Shown here: piece after piece, positions 11,950 to 61,606 of the stretch | Layout: each line of letters starts with the position of its first letter | How positions within the stretch are numbered: position 1 is the stretch's first letter | Assembly: GCA_013816135.1 (NCBI GenBank) | Contig: JACDEV010000003.1 | Location: forward strand, 1 to 61,815 | Length of the DNA stretch: 61,815 nucleotides | Reading direction: 5' to 3' | Origin: Patescibacteria group bacterium | Lineage (GTDB): Bacteria > Patescibacteriota > Minisyncoccia > Phycocordibacterales > DATDWN01 | The notes under the pieces: model-generated | Told to the model about the DNA's origin: nothing | What the model saw: the letters and a program-made list of their open reading frames with translations, nothing else | Database searches by the model: none | Made by a program: the position numbers and the translations under genes

Positions 11950-12024
11950 GCCGTTGTAGTTCAGTGGTAGAATACTGTCTTGGTAAGACAGTGGTCGTGG
12001 GTCCGATTCCCACCAACGGCTCCA
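11950..12024 (+). tRNA. tRNA-Thr (GGU), CCA encoded
   Basis: Acceptor GCCGTTG/CAACGGC, anticodon loop TTGGTAA, T arm GTGGG-TCCGATT-CCCAC (C at position 55). Confidence 0.9.
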
Positions 12025-12171
12025 AGAAAAAATATGTTTTTTCTTCTGGGAATCGGACGACGGAGCGGGCACACAGCGAGCTCGCTGGGTCGCGAGTCGG
12101 TGCCCAGACTAAAATGTTTTGACGAAAACATTTTAAGTCGAGGGAGATTTCCATCAACAGCTCAAAGAAAA
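12025..12171 (+). repeat. tRNA-linked GC-rich structured element, copy A
   Basis: In order: A/T hairpin; reverse complement of the tRNA-Thr T-loop/stem; GACGGAGCG; hairpin; CGCGAGTCGG; long hairpin; 22/26-nt copy of the tRNA 3' end plus trailer. Confidence 0.6.
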
Positions 12172-18286: not shown

Positions 18287-18357
18287 TGCCAGATCGTCTA
18301 ACGGTAGGACTCCGCCCTCTGGAGGCGGGTATCTTGGTTCGAGTCCAAGTCTGGCAG
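18287..18357 (+). tRNA. tRNA-Gln (CUG)
   Basis: Acceptor TGCCAGA/TCTGGCA (U1-A72), anticodon loop CTCTGGA, T arm CTTGG-TTCGAGT-CCAAG. No encoded CCA. Confidence 0.9.
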
Positions 18358-18540
18358 CAAAATAGCGAAGCTATTTTCCTGTCCAGAAGCAAAGCGTAGC
18401 TTTGCGCTTGGACTCGAACGACGGAGCGATTCGTGTTTTAACAAAAACACGACGCGAGTCGGCGCCTAGACTTTTTCCGAGCGACGGCAAGGAAAAAAGT
18501 CGGAGGAGAGAGTGTACTCACGATCCAAGTCTGGCAGCCA
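18358..18540 (+). repeat. tRNA-linked GC-rich structured element, copy B (ends in a second tRNA-Gln 3' end with CCA)
   Basis: A/T hairpin; TGTCCAGA; hairpin; CTTGG+ACTCGAA (inverted T-loop); GACGGAGCG; hairpin; CGCGAGTCGG; hairpin with GAGCGACGGC loop; CCAAG TCTGGCA G CCA. Confidence 0.6.
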
Positions 18541-45637: not shown

Positions 45638-47536
45638 TTAAACTCCAAGTATCACTGGAATCACAATAGGCTTCTTTGCGGTTTTTTGGAACAAGAATCG
45701 TCCGACATTGTCTGCTAGATTGGATTTAACGAAATCAAAGTTGATTGGGTTCATTCCTCGAGTAGTATCTTCTACAGTCTTTTTGATTATCATTCGAGCA
45801 TTTGATAGAAGCTCCTGTGATTCACGTAGATAAACAAATCCTCTAGCAATGATATCAGGGGACTTCTTAAGTTTTCCGGTTTTGGCGTTGATACTGACGA
45901 TCACTACGAAAATACCGTCTTGAGCTAACATTTTTCTATCTCGTATAACCATTTCTTGAACATTTCCAATAGAAAACCCGTCAACTATCATAATGCTATC
46001 TGGAGCTTGTTCTTTTAGTCTTACGAAGGTCTGTCCTTCATTTTGGATTTCTAATATAGAGCCGTTATCAGGAACAATAATATTTTCTTTCGGCATTCCT
46101 ACTGCAGTTTCAGCTAGATCTTCGTGAACTCTAAGCATGTAGTGATTTCCGTGCATAGGCATAAAGAATTTTGGAGCTATCATTTTGTGCAACCATTCAA
46201 GTTCTCCACGGTTACCGTGACCTGTTGAGTGGATGTAAACATCAGATGTTCTGTAGTGGATTATTTTTGCACCTTGTCTAGCTAAGTTATCTTTTAGTTT
46301 CTGAACAGCTTTTTCGTTTCCAGGAATAATAGATGAAGAGAGGAGCACTGTATCTCTTGGAGTTATCTTGAAATATTTGTGGGTCTTATTGGACATTCGC
46401 ATCAATGCAGCGAATTCATCTCCTTGAGCTCCAGTAGCCAAAACAATGATTCTGTCTGGAGGGTAATTTTCCATATCAGCAGTAGTAATAATAGTTTCCG
46501 GCTTTATTTTCAGCATTCCCATATTGAGAACAATCTCGATATTTGTTTTCATGCTTCGTCCTTCAACTACTACTTTTTTTCCATACTTTTCAGCAATCAT
46601 AACTATTTTCATTACACGTTCAAGCTGGGATGCGAAAGTTCCTATGACCAAACGGCCTTTAGTGTTTTTGATGATGTTATCCAAGTTTTCGTGCACCAAT
46701 CTTTCAGGTGTTGAAAACCCTGGGTTATCAACATTAGTTGAGTCCATCATAAGGAGAAGAACTTTTTCGTTTTTGAATCTTCCGAATTCTTTAAACTCAG
46801 CGTCTGTTGGCACTCCGTCGTTATGGTCTAGTTTGATATCACCAGGAGTAACAATGGCTCCGTAGGGAGTGTCAATTATAATACCCATTGAATCTGGAAT
46901 AGTATGAGTTACAGCAAAAAATCTAACTTTCAGTTTACCGAAACTTATAATGTCTTCCTTCTCAACTATCTTCATATCTAAAGCAGGTAAATGAGGAAAT
47001 TCTTCCTGACGCTTCTTTATCATTATTGAAGTAAGAGCCCGAGTATAAAGAGGGGGATTGCCGATACGATCCATGATGTATGGTATTCCTCCGATATGGT
47101 CTAAGTGACCGTGAGTAATGATTACTCCTCGAATCTTATCTTTTCTATCCTCTAAGTATTTTGTGTTAGGTAAAATATAGTCTACTCCTGGAGTGTCATC
47201 GTCCTTAAATTGAAATCCCATATCGATAACAATAATGTCATCCTTGTATTCAACAATAGTCATATTCTTTCCAACTTCTTCTACTCCTCCAAGGGGAATT
47301 ATACGGATGCTATCTCCTGCTGGTGGAATGATATCGTCAGTTTTTTTTGTCATTCTCATTGGTGGCATGCTTCTCTGAGAGAAAGATCTTTTTGAAAAAC
47401 CTCCTCTACCTCCACGTCCTTGTGCCGGAGCTGTGTGTAGAGATGGTTTTGTTTCTGTAGGTACGCTAGTAGAAAGGGCGTTTTCAAGCGCACTATCGAA
47501 CTTATCTCCACTGTTATTGTCTTTTGTATTATCCAT
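45638..47536 (-). CDS. rnj: ribonuclease J with an N-terminal RGG-like extension
   Basis: Metallo-beta-lactamase HGHLDH, beta-CASP and C-terminal domains. N-terminal GRGGRGGF low-complexity region. Confidence 0.9.
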   Translation of the reverse strand: MDNTKDNNSGDKFDSALENALSTSVPTETKPSLHTAPAQGRGGRGGFSKRSFSQRSMPPMRMTKKTDDIIPPAGDSIRIIPLGGVEEVGKNMTIVEYKDDIIVIDMGFQFKDDDTPGVDYILPNTKYLEDRKDKIRGVIITHGHLDHIGGIPYIMDRIGNPPLYTRALTSIMIKKRQEEFPHLPALDMKIVEKEDIISFGKLKVRFFAVTHTIPDSMGIIIDTPYGAIVTPGDIKLDHNDGVPTDAEFKEFGRFKNEKVLLLMMDSTNVDNPGFSTPERLVHENLDNIIKNTKGRLVIGTFASQLERVMKIVMIAEKYGKKVVVEGRSMKTNIEIVLNMGMLKIKPETIITTADMENYPPDRIIVLATGAQGDEFAALMRMSNKTHKYFKITPRDTVLLSSSIIPGNEKAVQKLKDNLARQGAKIIHYRTSDVYIHSTGHGNRGELEWLHKMIAPKFFMPMHGNHYMLRVHEDLAETAVGMPKENIIVPDNGSILEIQNEGQTFVRLKEQAPDSIMIVDGFSIGNVQEMVIRDRKMLAQDGIFVVIVSINAKTGKLKKSPDIIARGFVYLRESQELLSNARMIIKKTVEDTTRGMNPINFDFVKSNLADNVGRFLFQKTAKKPIVIPVILGV

Positions 47537-49392: not shown

Positions 49393-49432
49393 ATTCGTAG
49401 CTATTCGGAGATTCGAATAATTCGTATATTCG
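49393..49432. repeat. five phased ATTCG repeats (inverted orientation of the left array)
   Basis: ATTCG at 49393, 49403, 49411, 49420, 49428. Confidence 0.7.
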
Positions 49433-52971: not shown

Positions 52972-53889
52972 ATGCAATTTTCCCTAAATACAATGCAAAA
53001 ACTACTAAAATATTTTGCAATTCTGTCATTTCTTCTACCCATTTCACTTTTTGCTTTTGTCGTACCTGCAAAACCAACTGGATTTGTTCAGGATTATGCA
53101 AATATACTTTCTCCAGAGCAGATAAATCAGCTCGAGACGAAACTTGAAGCTTACGAGAAAAATACTACAAATGAAATTGCTGTTGTGACGATTCAGTCCC
53201 TTGATGGTGATGCTATTGAAAATGTTGCACAGGATATTTTTACGAAGTGGGGAATCGGTAAAAAAGATAAGAATAACGGAGTTTTACTTCTAATTTCTCT
53301 TTCTGATAGAAAAACTAGGATCCAAACGGGTTACGGTGTTGAGGGACAGCTTACAGACATAGGAACATCCTATATTCAGAGAGAAATTATTACTCCAGCG
53401 TTTAGAAATGGTGATTATTATTCGGGTATAAATGGAGCGGTAGATAAGATGATAGAAGCTTTAGGTGGAAATCAAATAGTTCCATTAGATTACGCTGTTT
53501 CTCAAAGAACCTCCAGTTTTCCTTGGAATTTTATTTTAATTTTTATTATCTTTGGTGTTCAAATCCTTACTGCAGTGCTTGCTCCATCTAAGTCTTGGTG
53601 GGCTGGTGGAGTTATCGGTGGAGTTTTTGGAGGAATAATTTGGCTTACAAATATTGTTTCTGGAATATATGCAATATTTGCATTTATTGTTCTAGTCATT
53701 CTTGGATTGATTTTTGATTATTTTGTTTCTAAGGCTTACACACAAAAAAAGACAACAGGATCATTTCCTCCTTGGTTTTTCTGGGGAGGTGGAGGTGGAG
53801 GATTCGGCGGGGGTAGAAGTGGAGGAGGTGGTTTCGGAGGATTTGGTGGAGGTTCATCAGGTGGTGGCGGATCTTCGGGAGGGTGGTAA
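52972..53889 (+). CDS. TPM-domain (YgcG-like) membrane protein with a Gly-rich tail
   Basis: VQDYANILSPEQ ... EIAVVTIQSL ... NNGVLLLISLSDRKTRIQTGYGVEGQLTD. Follows lemA, the usual pairing. Confidence 0.8.
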   Translation: MQFSLNTMQKLLKYFAILSFLLPISLFAFVVPAKPTGFVQDYANILSPEQINQLETKLEAYEKNTTNEIAVVTIQSLDGDAIENVAQDIFTKWGIGKKDKNNGVLLLISLSDRKTRIQTGYGVEGQLTDIGTSYIQREIITPAFRNGDYYSGINGAVDKMIEALGGNQIVPLDYAVSQRTSSFPWNFILIFIIFGVQILTAVLAPSKSWWAGGVIGGVFGGIIWLTNIVSGIYAIFAFIVLVILGLIFDYFVSKAYTQKKTTGSFPPWFFWGGGGGGFGGGRSGGGGFGGFGGGSSGGGGSSGGW

Positions 53890-53911
53890 ATCCGCACACT
53901 AACTTTCATTT
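53890..53911. repeat. left arm of a 22-bp perfect inverted repeat flanking the GIY-YIG gene
   Basis: ATCCGCACACTAACTTTCATTT is the exact reverse complement of 54170-54191. Confidence 0.9.
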
Positions 53912-53915
53912 CGTT

Positions 53916-54182
53916 ATGTTTTATATGTATATATTAAAAAGTAAGAAAAATGGCGAACTATATGTTGGTTCTACCAATAATCTGCGAGCTAGATTTATAA
54001 AACATAACAAAGGAGAGGTGACTTCTACACAGAGCAAAAGACCTTACATCTTAGTTTATTACGAGGCATATACTGCAGAAGGAGATGCGCGTAGACGTGA
54101 AAAAATGATAAAGTTAAGAGGACAAGCAAGGAATCAATTAATACTAAGATTAAAAGATACACTAGCGCAAAATGAAAGTTAG
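53916..54182 (+). CDS. GIY-YIG nuclease family protein (stand-alone Uri-type domain)
   Basis: YMYILKSKKNGELYVGSTNNLRARFIKHN (GIY...YVG...R...H/N) and a later E. The stop codon lies inside the right inverted repeat. Confidence 0.75.
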   Translation: MFYMYILKSKKNGELYVGSTNNLRARFIKHNKGEVTSTQSKRPYILVYYEAYTAEGDARRREKMIKLRGQARNQLILRLKDTLAQNES

Positions 54183-54202: not shown

Positions 54203-54706
54203 ATGAACAACATACCTGAAGTAAAAGATAAAGAATTGCATCGTATTGCCACAACAGTTCTAATTTATAAACCAGACTTTACATATCTCATTACTAGACG
54301 AGCACTTCATAAAAAAATGATGCCAGGTAAGTGGACTATTCCTGGTGGAGGTTTAAATATCGATGATTATATACATCTTCCTCCACATTCTGAAGGTGCA
54401 CCACAATGGTATGGAGCTTTGGAAAACAGTATGAGACGAGAGATAAAAGAAGAAGTAGATTTAGAAATTGGAAAATGTGAAATGCTAACTGACCTGACTT
54501 TTATTCGTCCAGATGGAATACCTGTGATTTGCTTCAGTTACTTTACGCCATTTATTTCAGGTGAAGTTAAGTTTGACCAAGATACTGAAGGAGATACTAT
54601 CGATGCAAAATGGGTGACCTTGGAAGAAGCTTCGAGGTATGATTTGATAGATGGGATTTGGGATGAGATAAAAGATGTGGAAAATATTTTAAAGTCACGG
54701 AAGTAA
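54203..54706 (+). CDS. NUDIX hydrolase
   Basis: GGGLNIDD ... MRREIKEEVDLEI Nudix box. Confidence 0.8.
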   Translation: MNNIPEVKDKELHRIATTVLIYKPDFTYLITRRALHKKMMPGKWTIPGGGLNIDDYIHLPPHSEGAPQWYGALENSMRREIKEEVDLEIGKCEMLTDLTFIRPDGIPVICFSYFTPFISGEVKFDQDTEGDTIDAKWVTLEEASRYDLIDGIWDEIKDVENILKSRK

Positions 54707-54722
54707 TTCTATAATTTTAATT

Positions 54723-54860
54723 GGAGAGTTCGCATAGCGGTCTGGTGTTGAAATGCGATGAGCATTTCAAAGACGGAGCATGGCGATGCGAGTCGGGGTC
54801 GAGGAAATTTTTTCCAAAAAATTATCCGTGACCGAGCTTGGAAAGCGGGTGCTATAATGG
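54723..54860 (+). pseudogene. disrupted copy of tRNA-Ser(GGA) carrying structured element copy C
   Basis: 54723-54747 matches the 5' 25 nt of the intact tRNA (1 mismatch). An 88-nt insert (54748-54835) carries GACGGAGC...GCGAGTCGG. Then comes the anticodon arm CGAGCTTGGAAAGCGGGT. No T arm or 3' acceptor strand. Confidence 0.6.
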
Positions 54861-54869
54861 TTTTTAATT

Positions 54870-54956
54870 GGAGAGTTCGCATAGCGGTCTAGTGCGCTCG
54901 CTTGGAAAGCGGGTAGGGAAGCAATTCCCTCAGGAGTTCGAATCTCCTACTCTCCG
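54870..54956 (+). tRNA. tRNA-Ser (GGA)
   Basis: Acceptor GGAGAGT/ACTCTCC, anticodon loop TTGGAAA, long variable arm, T arm AGGAG-TTCGAAT-CTCCT. TATAAT lies 11 nt upstream. No encoded CCA. Confidence 0.9.
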
Positions 54957-55127
54957 CAAACAAATTGTTTGCAATTTGTTCGTGAGAGTAAGTAAGGTCA
55001 TGTTATGACCTTACGTGGAGATTCGAAAGACGGAGCGGGTACTAGTCGAGCACGACTGGTCGCGAGTCCGGGTAGGGAAAATTTTCGAGCGACGGCCATA
55101 AAATTATTCCTGACCGAATTTCTCCGC
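54957..55127 (+). repeat. tRNA-linked GC-rich structured element, copy D
   Basis: A/T hairpin; GAGAGT; hairpin; GGAG+ATTCGAA (inverted T-loop of tRNA-Ser); GACGGAGCG; hairpin; CGCGAGTCCG; hairpin with CGAGCGACGGCC loop; CGAATTTCTCC GC. Confidence 0.6.
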
Positions 55128-59812: not shown

Positions 59813-59902
59813 GGAGGGTTGGCAGAGTGGTCTAATGCGCCGCACTCGAAACGCGGTTGGGGGTTTACCTCCTCACAGGTTCAAATCCTGTACCCTCCGC
59901 CA
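59813..59902 (+). tRNA. tRNA-Ser (CGA), CCA encoded
   Basis: Acceptor GGAGGGT/ACCCTCC, anticodon loop CTCGAAA, long variable arm, T arm ACAGG-TTCAAAT-CCTGT. Confidence 0.9.
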
Positions 59903-60037: not shown

Positions 60038-61606
60038 ATGAATAATCACACCAGAAAATTTTTCATCTATACTCGCAAATCTACCGATACAGAAGATCGG
60101 CAAGTTAGAAGCATTTCGGATCAACTGGCCGAGTTAAAAGAGTTAGTGGTTAAAGAACAAATTGAGGTTGTTGATATTTTCGTGGAAAAGCAAACTGCTA
60201 AAGCTCCGGGTCGGCCAGTATTCAATGAAATGCTTCTCCGTATCGAAGCAAATGAGGCGAGTGGGATTTTAGCGTGGCATCCTGACCGCCTAGCTCGTAA
60301 TTCTGTTGATGGTGGAAAGATAATATATTTGCTTGATACGGGAAAAATTGCCGAGCTAAAATTCCCAACTTTCTGGTGTGATACTACGCCACAAGGTAAG
60401 TTCATGCTTTCCATTGCTTTCTCTCAATCCAAATACTATATCGATAACTTATCGGAGAATATCAAGCGTGGACACAGAAACAAAGTGAAAGACGGTATAT
60501 GGCCTCAAATGTCGCCTCTGGGCTATGTAAATGTCAAAGGTGCTGGAATAGTACCCGATGAAAATATCGCTCCGTTAATCAAGAAAACATTTGAGGCCTA
60601 CGCAACTGGAAATTTCACTTTGCGACAACTGCACGATAAGTTTAACGCTCTTGGATTGAGTAGAAAGAATGGAAAGGTGCTTTCCGTTTCAAACTATCAA
60701 CAAATTTTGAAAAATCCGATATTCACGGGGTTAATGAGATATAGTGGTGAAATATACGAAGGAAAGCACAAACCGATTATCACAAAGAAACTTTTTGATT
60801 CTGTTCAAGAGGTGATGAGTCGAAAATCTAAACCGCATAGCAAAGGACTGAAACCATTTTTGTATAGAGGATTTTTCCGTTGTGGAGAATGTGGATGTTT
60901 TATCACTACCGAAACACAGAAAGGTCATAACTATTTGCGATGTACTAAACGGAAAAATCCTTGTTTGCAAAAATATGTCCGTGAAGAAATCATCACTTCT
61001 CAAATTGCAGAAAGTATCAAAAAAGTTTCTTTGCCACTCGATTGGACAAATTGGATGATTGCCGAAAATGAAAAAGATCGGCAATCAGAAACCCAATCGA
61101 GTGAGATTTTTTCTCAAAAAACAAAAGATGAAATTTCTCTTTTAGATTCAAAAGTTGAAAAGTTGATGAACTTATATTTAGAAAATGTTTTGTCTTTGGA
61201 AGAATATCGTGATTCTAAAAATAAGTTAGTGAATCAAAAACAACTTTTAAAAGAGAAATTATCGGCTTTTGAGAAAAAATCTCATAATCGGTTCGAACTT
61301 ACCGATAAATTCCTAAAAGCCAATGTATCCAATATGGAATTGGCTAACGAGAAAACAAATGAAGAAATTCTTCATTTGTTTAAAAAAGTCGGTTCGAACT
61401 TTCAAATCTTGAATCGAACCGTCTTTTTTGAGCCACGCTCTGCGTGGCGAACCCTTTCAGATTCAGGATTTTTTGGGGGGAATTCAGAACAGACGGCACT
61501 TCGTGCCGACCATATTTTTGCTTCCGAACCCGATTTCGTTTTTTGGCGGTATGTTCTGGACAAAGTTCGAACCTTTTTTGAAATGAATCCTGACGAAGAA
61601 ATCTGA
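60038..61606 (+). CDS. large serine recombinase (integrase/invertase type)
   Basis: Resolvase catalytic domain (IYTRKSTDTEDRQ, HPDRLARN), recombinase domain, zinc ribbon (CGECGC...LRCTKRKNPC), coiled coil. Adjacent to a tRNA gene. Confidence 0.9.
   Translation: MNNHTRKFFIYTRKSTDTEDRQVRSISDQLAELKELVVKEQIEVVDIFVEKQTAKAPGRPVFNEMLLRIEANEASGILAWHPDRLARNSVDGGKIIYLLDTGKIAELKFPTFWCDTTPQGKFMLSIAFSQSKYYIDNLSENIKRGHRNKVKDGIWPQMSPLGYVNVKGAGIVPDENIAPLIKKTFEAYATGNFTLRQLHDKFNALGLSRKNGKVLSVSNYQQILKNPIFTGLMRYSGEIYEGKHKPIITKKLFDSVQEVMSRKSKPHSKGLKPFLYRGFFRCGECGCFITTETQKGHNYLRCTKRKNPCLQKYVREEIITSQIAESIKKVSLPLDWTNWMIAENEKDRQSETQSSEIFSQKTKDEISLLDSKVEKLMNLYLENVLSLEEYRDSKNKLVNQKQLLKEKLSAFEKKSHNRFELTDKFLKANVSNMELANEKTNEEILHLFKKVGSNFQILNRTVFFEPRSAWRTLSDSGFFGGNSEQTALRADHIFASEPDFVFWRYVLDKVRTFFEMNPDEEI
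61430..61483. repeat. right arm of the 54-bp perfect inverted repeat (inside the recombinase 3' coding region)
   Basis: GAGCCACGCTCTGCGTGGCGAACCCTTTCAGATTCAGGATTTTTTGGGGGGAAT. Confidence 0.95.

Follow-up and report, generated by a model that had tools for sequence, protein, structure and literature searches.

Extra sequence at defined positions of tRNAs is a feature of archaeal bulge-helix-bulge introns and of bacterial group I introns in tRNA anticodon loops. A similar arrangement occurs in a Patescibacteria group bacterium (assembly GCA_013816135.1), on a stretch of 61,815 nucleotides (nt) of contig JACDEV010000003.1 (positions 1 to 61,815, forward strand; the whole stretch is hereafter called the window), where a partial second copy of the tRNA-Ser(GGA) gene is broken by 88 nt of foreign sequence. 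The original prediction for this locus, made from the letters alone, compared the interruption to a non-canonical tRNA intron of the archaeal type. Our data show that the insert (54748-54832) is one copy of a family of conserved structured RNA elements and not a tRNA intron. This family appears to be specific to the Candidate Phyla Radiation (CPR, Patescibacteria), where it occurs in the flanks of genes for tRNA, transfer-messenger RNA (tmRNA) and 5S rRNA, and it is apparently undescribed and outside the known kinds of elements. Unlike the introns mentioned above, it has neither a bulge-helix-bulge nor a group I core, the gene copies that it interrupts are incomplete, and an intact gene lies beside each of those examined.

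Analysis of the tRNA-Ser(GGA) locus confirmed the duplication of its 5' part. Repeat search detected a 33-nt block, TTTTAATTGGAGAGTTCGCATAGCGGTCT(G/A)GTG, at 54715-54747 and again at 54862-54894 (97% identity), and a TATAAT box precedes both copies (54710-54715 and 54853-54858), as had been described; the spacing from TATAAT to GGAGAG is unequal, with 7 nt in the upstream copy and 11 nt in the downstream one. The sole tRNA called here by ARAGORN and Rfam was tRNA-Ser(GGA) at 54870-54957, which is the downstream copy. Neither program called a cloverleaf in the upstream partial copy, which is therefore not a functional second tRNA-Ser gene. In this copy the tRNA sequence breaks off behind the D arm (54747), where 88 nt of extra sequence begin (54748-54835). 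The tRNA sequence then resumes with GCTTGGAAAGCGGGT (54836-54850), 15 nt that carry the GGA anticodon, are 100% identical to 54900-54914 of the intact tRNA-Ser (repeat D6) and pass directly into the second TATAAT. The 5' strand of its 'anticodon stem' has become CGAGC instead of CTCGC, so that the pairing of the arm is lost. What the upstream copy retains of the tRNA is thus its acceptor 5' strand, its D arm and an anticodon arm that is damaged, whereas the variable arm, the T arm and the 3' acceptor strand are missing; the break after the D arm, the missing 3' parts and the resumption of the anticodon arm had all been correctly recognised. Five promoter-like sites were found in this region where 1.5 were expected. 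The best of them, with 10 of 12 matches, precedes the partial copy, and this predicted promoter supports the earlier suggestion that the upstream copy is probably transcribed.

The insert has a predicted minimum free energy of -32.9 kcal/mol (z = -4.76), and none of 200 shuffled sequences was equally stable. Folding predicted all the hairpins that had been listed for it (a 9-bp hairpin, a GCAT/ATGC hairpin and an A/T hairpin). The assumption that the insert contains the same core motif as other sites of the window was also borne out. The motif, (A/C)GACGGAGC ... GCGAGUC(N)GG, has four occurrences in the window, and a covariance model (R1) retrieved exactly four copies, at 12046-12155 (111 bits), 18407-18517 (99 bits), 55016-55125 (87 bits) and 54759-54843 (39 bits). 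The lowest-scoring copy is the insert in the tRNA-Ser fragment (E = 7e-10), while the three others are located just downstream of tRNA-Thr (11950-12024), of tRNA-Gln (18287-18358) and of the same tRNA-Ser. The first hairpin of the insert (hairpin A) was also considered as a diverged copy of an anticodon loop, according to an X / anti-X / X rule. This was ruled out by a copy from another genome fragment, L344 (L-numbers are labels of fetched loci or contigs), which carries the identical UUGAAAUGC/GCAUUUCAA stem; hairpin A therefore belongs to the element. The GGA/GA loop between helices P1 and P2 shows a tandem G-A pattern with a 1-nt bulge, the kink-turn criterion being a 3-nt bulge with tandem sheared G.A pairs.

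Support for this fold was provided by sequence comparison. The alignment of 21 type-1 copies revealed a common structure composed of P1 (CGAC/GUCG), a conserved GGA/GA internal loop, P2 (GCG/CGC) with a variable hairpin cap, a short linker and P3, the latter comprising CCY/RGG, GAC/GUC and an A/U-rich hairpin whose loop is often GACGR or GAGCGACGGC. In this alignment 92% of the cells were paired, versus 38-51% with slid partners, and 117 cells were compensatory, a result reached by none of 500 shuffles. The CCY/RGG pair covaries 9:9, being C-G in nine copies and U-A in nine, and compensatory changes were found even in the 'invariant' helices of a distant variant (CGGC/GCCG and GUG/CAC in L224). 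A short P2 hairpin of 8 nt, as in the window insert, characterised 31 of 121 cores among the matches listed. Thirteen of these copies, including that of the window, possess their own 5' hairpin, UUGAAnnnn-loop-nnnnUUCAA, which resembles a fossil T loop followed by an anti-T loop; in the window insert it reads UUGAAAU-GC ... GC-AUUUCAA and provides the element with a T-loop/anti-T-loop of its own. The alignment of these 13 self-contained copies (85-92 nt) was 96.7% paired, versus 33-48% for slid controls, with 46 compensatory cells and a G.U in 11 of the 13 copies at one pair.

Analysis of the distribution of the family retrieved more than 130 copies beyond those of the window. All of them were in low-GC contigs, and those bearing an organism title belonged to CPR/Patescibacteria. 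A scan of species representatives (one genome per species) yielded about 20 low-GC loci, all from Patescibacteria and distributed among Parcubacteria, Saccharibacteria and unclassified CPR, and a metagenome scan for the AGACGGAGC ... GCGAGUCNGGGU subtype yielded at least 120 loci. Pattern matches in high-GC, non-CPR sequences were read as chance: those inspected were in GC-rich sequence without a tRNA nearby, all scored at most 27 bits, and they resembled coding DNA by their appearance, open reading frames (ORFs) not having been called there. Among the matches listed, 98 of 133 cores had a tRNA or tmRNA within 350 nt, which was upstream on the same strand in 88 cases, downstream on the same strand in seven and on the opposite strand in three, and 95 of these 98 cores were thus co-oriented with their neighbour. 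The tmRNA neighbours were confirmed. The element itself was unmatched in Rfam 15, whether at the gathering thresholds or at E up to 10, with only tRNA, tmRNA and rRNA being found, and no phage, plasmid or viral copy was present in IMG/VR, INPHARED or PLSDB. No description of such elements was encountered in the searchable literature, which is incomplete.

The architecture of the window locus recurs in other genomes. Three contigs (L268, L305 and L320) contain an upstream partial tRNA-Ser(GCT) copy with the element in its D loop, and the element also occurs in upstream partial copies of tRNA-Lys (L254) and tRNA-Glu (L310), each followed by an intact gene. In L314, it is present in antisense orientation in a second 5S rRNA copy beside an intact 5S gene, as a simple insertion in which TA is replaced and no target is duplicated. 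At this locus (L314:230-690), the two 5S copies lie downstream of the 23S gene, and the distal one, which carries the element, has divergent but mutually complementary termini. An intact host gene accompanies the interrupted copy in every example of the 5' type examined (the window, L268, L305, L320, L310, L254 and the 5S gene of L314). Further self-contained copies were detected where no tRNA was called within 350 nt, and one of them, in L270, is flanked by a repeat of about 39 nt resembling the 3' end of a coding gene. The left flank of the copies is usually G-rich (...GAGUG|, ...UGGUG|, ...CGGGG|) and resembles the end of the T-stem 5' strand before the T loop. These D-loop, anticodon-region and 5S copies agree with the earlier view that the core is not restricted to T-loop contexts, and support its description as a discrete insertion with the same core as the copies in T-loop contexts. 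The related tRNA-Ser(GGA) of L351 has the downstream unit and nothing upstream, indicating that the upstream copy is lineage-specific and the downstream unit older; the single other contig with the genes of the window is identical to the window.

The intron reading, in which the insert would be cut out of a non-canonical tRNA position by an archaeal-type endonuclease or by self-splicing, can draw on the sharp boundaries of the insert inside tRNA-derived sequence and on the copies found at D-loop, anticodon and T-loop positions. It was ruled out by virtual splicing and by a search for bulge-helix-bulge motifs. None of 480 deletion variants around the junctions gave an ARAGORN tRNA call, whereas a chimera with the 3' part of the real tRNA was called at once, which indicates that the splicing test was sensitive. 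No bulge-helix-bulge was found at the junctions, where two candidates had a central 4-bp helix and neither had flanking helices. The insert matched no group I or group II intron, ribozyme or other Rfam 15 family at E up to 10, and its 85 nt are far below the size of group I introns. Moreover, an upstream copy devoid of both the 3' acceptor strand and the T arm could not give a tRNA by splicing, and it is followed by an intact tRNA gene. The presence of an intact host gene beside each interrupted copy examined is what would be expected if the element stays in the RNA and its insertions are tolerated in redundant copies only. The original prediction was accordingly right about a discrete insertion able to occupy non-canonical tRNA positions and wrong about its removal, and we consider a tRNA intron highly improbable.

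In its usual form, the element is found 20-90 nt past a tRNA or tmRNA gene, as part of a larger unit. The order was the same in every labelled CPR locus: the tRNA or tmRNA, a terminator-like hairpin, often an anti-acceptor segment, often a small conserved hairpin with a CUGC or UGGGA loop (H0), a 5' arm (S'), the core and a 3' arm (S). S' is an exact reverse complement of the T loop and 3' T stem of the tRNA, often extending to the acceptor strand, while S repeats in direct orientation the part of the tRNA that runs from about position 56/57 to the end, and in some cases the terminator as well (L140, with a 41-nt repeat). Exact S' matches were found in the window for Gln (13/13), Thr (11/11) and Ser (11/11), the Ser arm (55017-55027) being the reverse complement of 54937-54947 (repeats I2 and I3). 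Comparison of S' loops with T loops (ACUCGAA/UUCGAGU, AAUCGGA/UCCGAUU, GCUUGAA/UUCAAGC and AUUGAAG/CUUCAAU) showed that the copy is inverted and not direct. S' pairs with S and closes the core in a helix, which together with the acceptor-like segments reproduces the 'top half' of a tRNA with the core in place of the T loop. Such S'/S arms derived from a neighbouring tRNA are present in the Thr, Gln and downstream Ser units and absent from the insert in the tRNA-Ser fragment.

Of 190 tRNAs in the fetched loci, 80 are followed within 300 nt by an exact inverted copy of 10 nt or more of their 3' end; this sample is biased, as the loci were fetched by motif. Fifty-two of these 80 have the present core type and 28 have other core types sharing the P1 / tandem-GA / P2 design, which points to a wider superfamily of T-loop-replacing cores. 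In the Gln unit, an extra module (GAGUGUACUCACGA, 18510-18523) follows the core, and the same GUGUACUCACGG module, with GGUGUAC and CUGUAAG hairpins, constitutes another core type after other tRNAs (L259, L299, L346 and L357). Complementarity to the tRNA involved 10 or more of the 12 nt located 5' of the core in 50 of 73 units. Two paralogous tRNA-Ser loci of L132 differ by a T-stem change from GAGAG/CTCTC to GUGAG/CUCAC, which appears alike in the tRNA, S' and S; their cores are 87/90 identical and their spacers have drifted. The arms thus follow the sequence of the adjacent tRNA, and the core is more strongly constrained than the sequence around it. The near-identical cores were also considered as the product of a recent transposition, and duplication of the whole tRNA-plus-unit locus explains them better. 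The origin of S' was sought in staggered cuts, hairpin opening, self-primed reverse transcription and Campbell integration, each of which fails at one junction at least.

Several loci depart from the single-unit layout. Tandem arrays of two to three units after one tRNA or tmRNA were observed in L145 (5540-6190, minus strand), L259, L224 and L190. Within an array, the tRNA 3' end is copied separately for each unit and the core type sometimes differs, a layout reminiscent of repeat-spacer arrays: up to three units with different cores are present in L145 and L259, a whole unit is repeated in tandem in L190, and L224 contains a truncated copy. An orphan unit was found in L204 (820-1030, minus strand), with self-consistent arms that do not match the sequence upstream, which resembles a collapsed tRNA remnant (GCGGATGGGTACTTAACCCACCTGCACCGCA). 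A second exact GGAGATTCGAA 11-mer is present in the window at 49407-49417 inside an ORF region, probably by chance.

The downstream units raise the possibility of a host-functional, guide-bearing RNA, which we regard as a tentative alternative. The 5' arm would pair with the precursor or the gene of the neighbouring tRNA, the core would be either a scaffold for a protein or a sensor, and the 3' copy a competing or masking strand; the outcome would be a control of tRNA maturation or stability, or an RNA-guided action on tRNA genes, and the upstream copy of the window would be a derived leader version, suggestions that are equally tentative. Pure mimicry of a tRNA does not explain that the last 3 nt of S' (GAA, GGA or AAG) track U54-C56 of the tRNA (UUC, UCC or CUU), bases that are missing from the 3' arm of the unit itself, nor does it explain the concordant changes of the arms in the L132 paralogues. 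Conserved purine-rich internal loops combined with hairpins of variable length are typical of RNAs binding proteins or ligands, and the retention of units at orthologous tRNAs, like their near-total co-orientation with tRNAs, can also be expected from a host function. On the other hand, a bona fide intrinsic terminator is usually located between the tRNA and the unit, and by the time S' is transcribed the tRNA has already been synthesised and folded. No tRNA-specific arms are present in the self-contained copies, one of which is antisense in a 5S copy and others of which have no tRNA called within 350 nt; truncated and nested copies exist, and no partner protein was found among the 20 of 65 window ORFs that were scanned against Pfam. 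A T-box-like control of the cognate synthetase was ruled out, the downstream genes being unrelated (a small hypothetical protein, an HD-domain protein and an unknown membrane protein). With still less confidence, the units can be proposed as a new class of programmable, tRNA-tethered RNAs, made of a scaffold of about 90 nt, an adjacent arm of 12-25 nt that is antisense to the acceptor strand, T stem and T loop of a single tRNA or tmRNA, and a masking sense copy, of which the insert would be a free-moving derivative. It is just as speculative that their target would be the tRNA precursor, for maturation or quality control, or the gene, for an RNA-guided homing or duplication without an element-encoded protein.

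The strand on which the element acts was assessed from its base pairs. G.U pairs outnumber A.C pairs on the plus strand, one G.U is conserved and the unpaired conserved bases are purine-rich on that strand, by which an opposite-strand transcript was ruled out. Cores were on the G-rich strand in 62% of cases, versus 61% for tRNAs overall, and the replication-strand bias of single-stranded-DNA transposons was therefore not observed beyond that of the tRNAs themselves. Orientation thus follows transcription and not replication, which favours a role at the RNA level over a single-strand-DNA signal. These observations bear on the possibility of a relic of a single-stranded-DNA transposon, i.e. a non-autonomous element of the IS200/IS605 type (PATE/REP-like) whose hairpins would be signals for a Y1 transposase. 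Subterminal hairpins without terminal inverted repeats, the simple L314 insertion without target duplication and a purine-rich left flank (...GG|UUGAA) like the T-stem/T-loop junction would suit such an origin. It is nevertheless very unlikely, given an orientation set by the tRNA and not by the replication strand, a conserved G.U wobble and tandem G-A motifs that are RNA-like, and unpaired nucleotides conserved across phylum-level distances. No Y1 transposase or TnpB was detected in the 20 window ORFs scanned, the ORFs of the fetched loci not being annotated.

More generally, no transposase, reverse transcriptase, integrase or nuclease was found next to the window copies among the scanned ORFs, and no ORF-bearing autonomous version with split 5' and 3' core halves was found in about 260 loci. 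Neither element-specific terminal inverted repeats nor a fixed target duplication could be recognised, the flanks differing between copies. Two remaining readings, a unique decaying duplication with chance hairpins and an insertion scar left by an integrase at a tRNA, deserve hardly any credence. The former is already contradicted by recurrence and covariation, with more than 130 homologous copies. The latter could invoke the direct repeats of tRNA 3' ends and terminator that flank units like attachment (att) sites, as in the 41-nt repeat of L140, and the gene for a large serine recombinase beside another tRNA of the window. Opposed to it are the absence of copies from IMG/VR and from phage and plasmid collections, the lack of an integrase beside the copies of the window (the neighbours in fetched loci being unannotated) and the inverted arm, which is not expected from att recombination.

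The serine recombinase (522 amino acids, with Resolvase, Recombinase and Zn-ribbon domains) is encoded at 60038-61606 on the plus strand, 135 nt downstream of tRNA-Ser(CGA) (59813-59902), a tRNA that is not followed by a structured unit. It may mark the edge of an integrated element running off the window. A stand-alone GIY-YIG nuclease-domain ORF of 99 amino acids is present at 53883-54182 (plus strand); it precedes the duplicated 5' part of tRNA-Ser by about 540 nt and has no established link with the element. RNase J, encoded at 45638-47536 on the minus strand, is a candidate enzyme for processing the leaders and trailers of tRNAs, and RNase E may be missing from this organism. The cumulative GC skew shows a monotonic rise over all 62 kb and most genes are on the plus strand, which suggests that the window lies within one replichore. 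All four copies of the element lie, like their tRNAs, on the side of the leading strand, and no unit accompanies either of the two minus-strand tRNAs.

Taken together, we interpret the 88-nt interruption, with moderate confidence, as a copy of a conserved, non-coding structured RNA element of CPR/Patescibacteria for which a leftover tRNA 5' fragment served as host site. A tandem duplication of about 64 bp, from the promoter to the anticodon arm, would have left a harmless 5' fragment immediately before the functional gene, and a self-contained derivative of the element would have inserted into this redundant fragment between G54747 and C54833. The upstream promoter would then drive a transcript carrying the fragment, the element and the intact tRNA, the former two as a 5' leader of tRNA-Ser, and cleavage by RNase P at the mature 5' end of the intact tRNA would release the element-bearing leader. 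The element would never be spliced and the functional tRNA would remain untouched. The family as a whole is probably a co-transcribed, duplicative RNA element. Its duplicative spread is suggested by new sites, tandem arrays, nested and truncated copies and lineage-specific presence, and the RNA fold would be what selection preserves. Co-orientation with the host gene suggests that the element rides on strong tRNA transcription, and the family may depend on being transcribed together with stable-RNA genes.

Several observations weigh against this interpretation. No autonomous partner was found: the scanned window ORFs included no transposase, reverse transcriptase or integrase next to copies, and the roughly 260 loci contained no ORF-bearing version. 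Terminal inverted repeats belonging to the element are absent, as is a fixed target duplication, so that no mechanism accounts for its mobility. The deep conservation of unpaired nucleotides and the retention of copies at orthologous tRNAs (Thr-GGT in three genomes and Ser-GCT in three contigs) speak for a host function no less than for a selfish spread. Nor does any simple insertion model account for the inverted arm S'. Transcription, processing and activity are deduced from sequence, and the restriction to CPR rests on labelled genome matches and on base composition, the metagenome loci having no organism labels.

CPR/Patescibacteria represent a major part of bacterial diversity and have tiny genomes, which makes the retention of such elements notable. 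If our interpretation is true, these bacteria carry a large and previously unrecorded family of structured RNAs on their tRNA, tmRNA and 5S genes. No counterpart was found for its architecture, in which a tRNA 'top half' is built from inverted and direct copies of a neighbour and a covarying domain stands for the T loop. It bears on the expression and processing of tRNA genes, on the protein-free spread of non-coding elements and on RNA guides complementary to tRNAs. Annotation pipelines would otherwise report these loci as tRNA pseudogenes, 'interrupted tRNAs' or introns. The window insert is itself a derived, weaker-scoring copy, and its value lies in exposing a widespread and apparently undescribed element system of CPR bacteria. 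The features of the window that carry it are collected in Table 1.

Table 1. Positions of the tRNA-Ser(GGA) locus features and of the structured units in the window
Feature	Position	Strand	Description or evidence
Promoter-like site of the partial copy	54688-54715	+	-35 TTTAAA, 16-nt spacer, -10 TATAAT; 10/12 matches, best in region
Partial tRNA-Ser(GGA), acceptor 5' strand and D arm (GGAGAGTTCGCATAGCGGTCTGGTG)	54723-54747	+	1 mismatch vs 54870-54894
Self-contained ('class B') three-hairpin element, 85 nt	54748-54832	+	Fold, 13-copy alignment, model R1
Hairpin A, UUGAAAUGC / GCAUUUCAA stem	54748-54770	+	9-bp hairpin
P1, GAC/GUC	54772-54774 / 54792-54794	+	GGA/GA internal loop, hairpin GCAU-GGCG-AUGC, then GG linker
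P3, GUCG...UGAC, A/U-rich	54797-54832	+	Fold
Junction CGA and 15-nt copy of anticodon loop / 3' anticodon stem (GCTTGGAAAGCGGGT)	54833-54850	+	Terminates partial tRNA copy
Second -10 box with TG extension (TGCTATAAT)	54850-54858	+	No -35 match upstream; not scored as full promoter
Intact tRNA-Ser(GGA)	54870-54957	+	ARAGORN; Rfam 50.6 bits
Terminator-like hairpin after tRNA-Ser	54956-54972	+	Sequence scan
Ser unit, 5' arm	54984-55027	+	Acceptor-5'-like GAGAGT; H0 54992-55014; S' GGAGATTCGAA 55017-55027
Ser unit, core of type 2, AGACGGAGC ... GCGAGUCCGGGU ... CCUGAC	55028-55114	+	87 bits
Ser unit, 3' arm CGAATTTCTCCGC	55115-55127	+	Degenerate direct copy of T-loop 3' part, T stem and tRNA end
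Thr(GGT) unit	12048-12164	+	S' GGGAATCGGA 12048-12057; core 12058-12147; direct copy TTTCCATCAACAGCTCA 12148-12164; 111 bits
Gln(CTG) unit, whole, with its 5' segments	18380-18538	+	Acceptor-5'-like 18380-18387; H0 18389-18405; S' CTTGGACTCGAA 18407-18418
Gln(CTG) unit, 3' part	18419-18538	+	Core 18419-18509; extra module GAGTGTACTCACGA 18510-18523; direct copy TCCAAGTCTGGCAGC 18524-18538, 15/15; 99 bits

Among known RNAs, the units can be compared with tRNA-like structures such as the tRNA-like domain of tmRNA, the tRNA-like structures of viral 3' ends, YrlA Y RNAs and mascRNA, in which an acceptor and T-stem 'top half' is combined with a foreign domain; mascRNA further resembles them in lying in a transcript next to another RNA. 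In the units, however, the foreign domain replaces the T loop, and the D and anticodon arms are reduced to one small hairpin or missing. Furthermore, a unit mimics whichever tRNA adjoins it instead of a fixed type, and contains an anti-T-loop segment. Another comparison can be made with guide-plus-scaffold RNAs, namely the omega RNA of IscB/TnpB, the bridge RNA of IS110 and the homing CRISPR RNAs (crRNAs) of CRISPR-associated transposons (CASTs), which share with the units a variable, target-complementary segment directly 5' of a multi-hairpin scaffold of about 90-110 nt. The homing crRNAs of type V-K CASTs match tRNA genes. This comparison is a general one: the units show no similarity to these RNAs in sequence or in Rfam, no gene for a nuclease or recombinase was found in association with them, and the arm of the units is also matched by a sense copy 3' of the scaffold.

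As mobile DNA, the elements are reminiscent of REP/BIME, Correia, RUP and Rickettsia palindromic elements, which are likewise short, non-coding, hairpin-forming and multi-copy, and are located in or beside genes, including those of stable RNAs. They differ from these by the absence of their own terminal inverted repeats and of a fixed duplication, by covariation and conservation across phylum-level distances, and by arms derived from tRNAs. Integrative elements at the 3' ends of tRNA and tmRNA genes have the same targets and also leave the tRNA intact by means of a direct repeat of its 3' end, sometimes with the terminator. In contrast, the cargo of the units is limited to about 100-200 nt without a recombinase, an inverted copy of the att-like segment is present, and the units do not occur in viral or plasmid collections. 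Finally, the tRNA 3' segment occurs in direct / inverted / direct order, turning around at the hairpins of the terminator and of the T arm, as in tandem inversion duplications produced by template switching at quasi-palindromes; the units differ from these in possessing a conserved structured core at the second turnaround and in keeping their arrangement across genomes.

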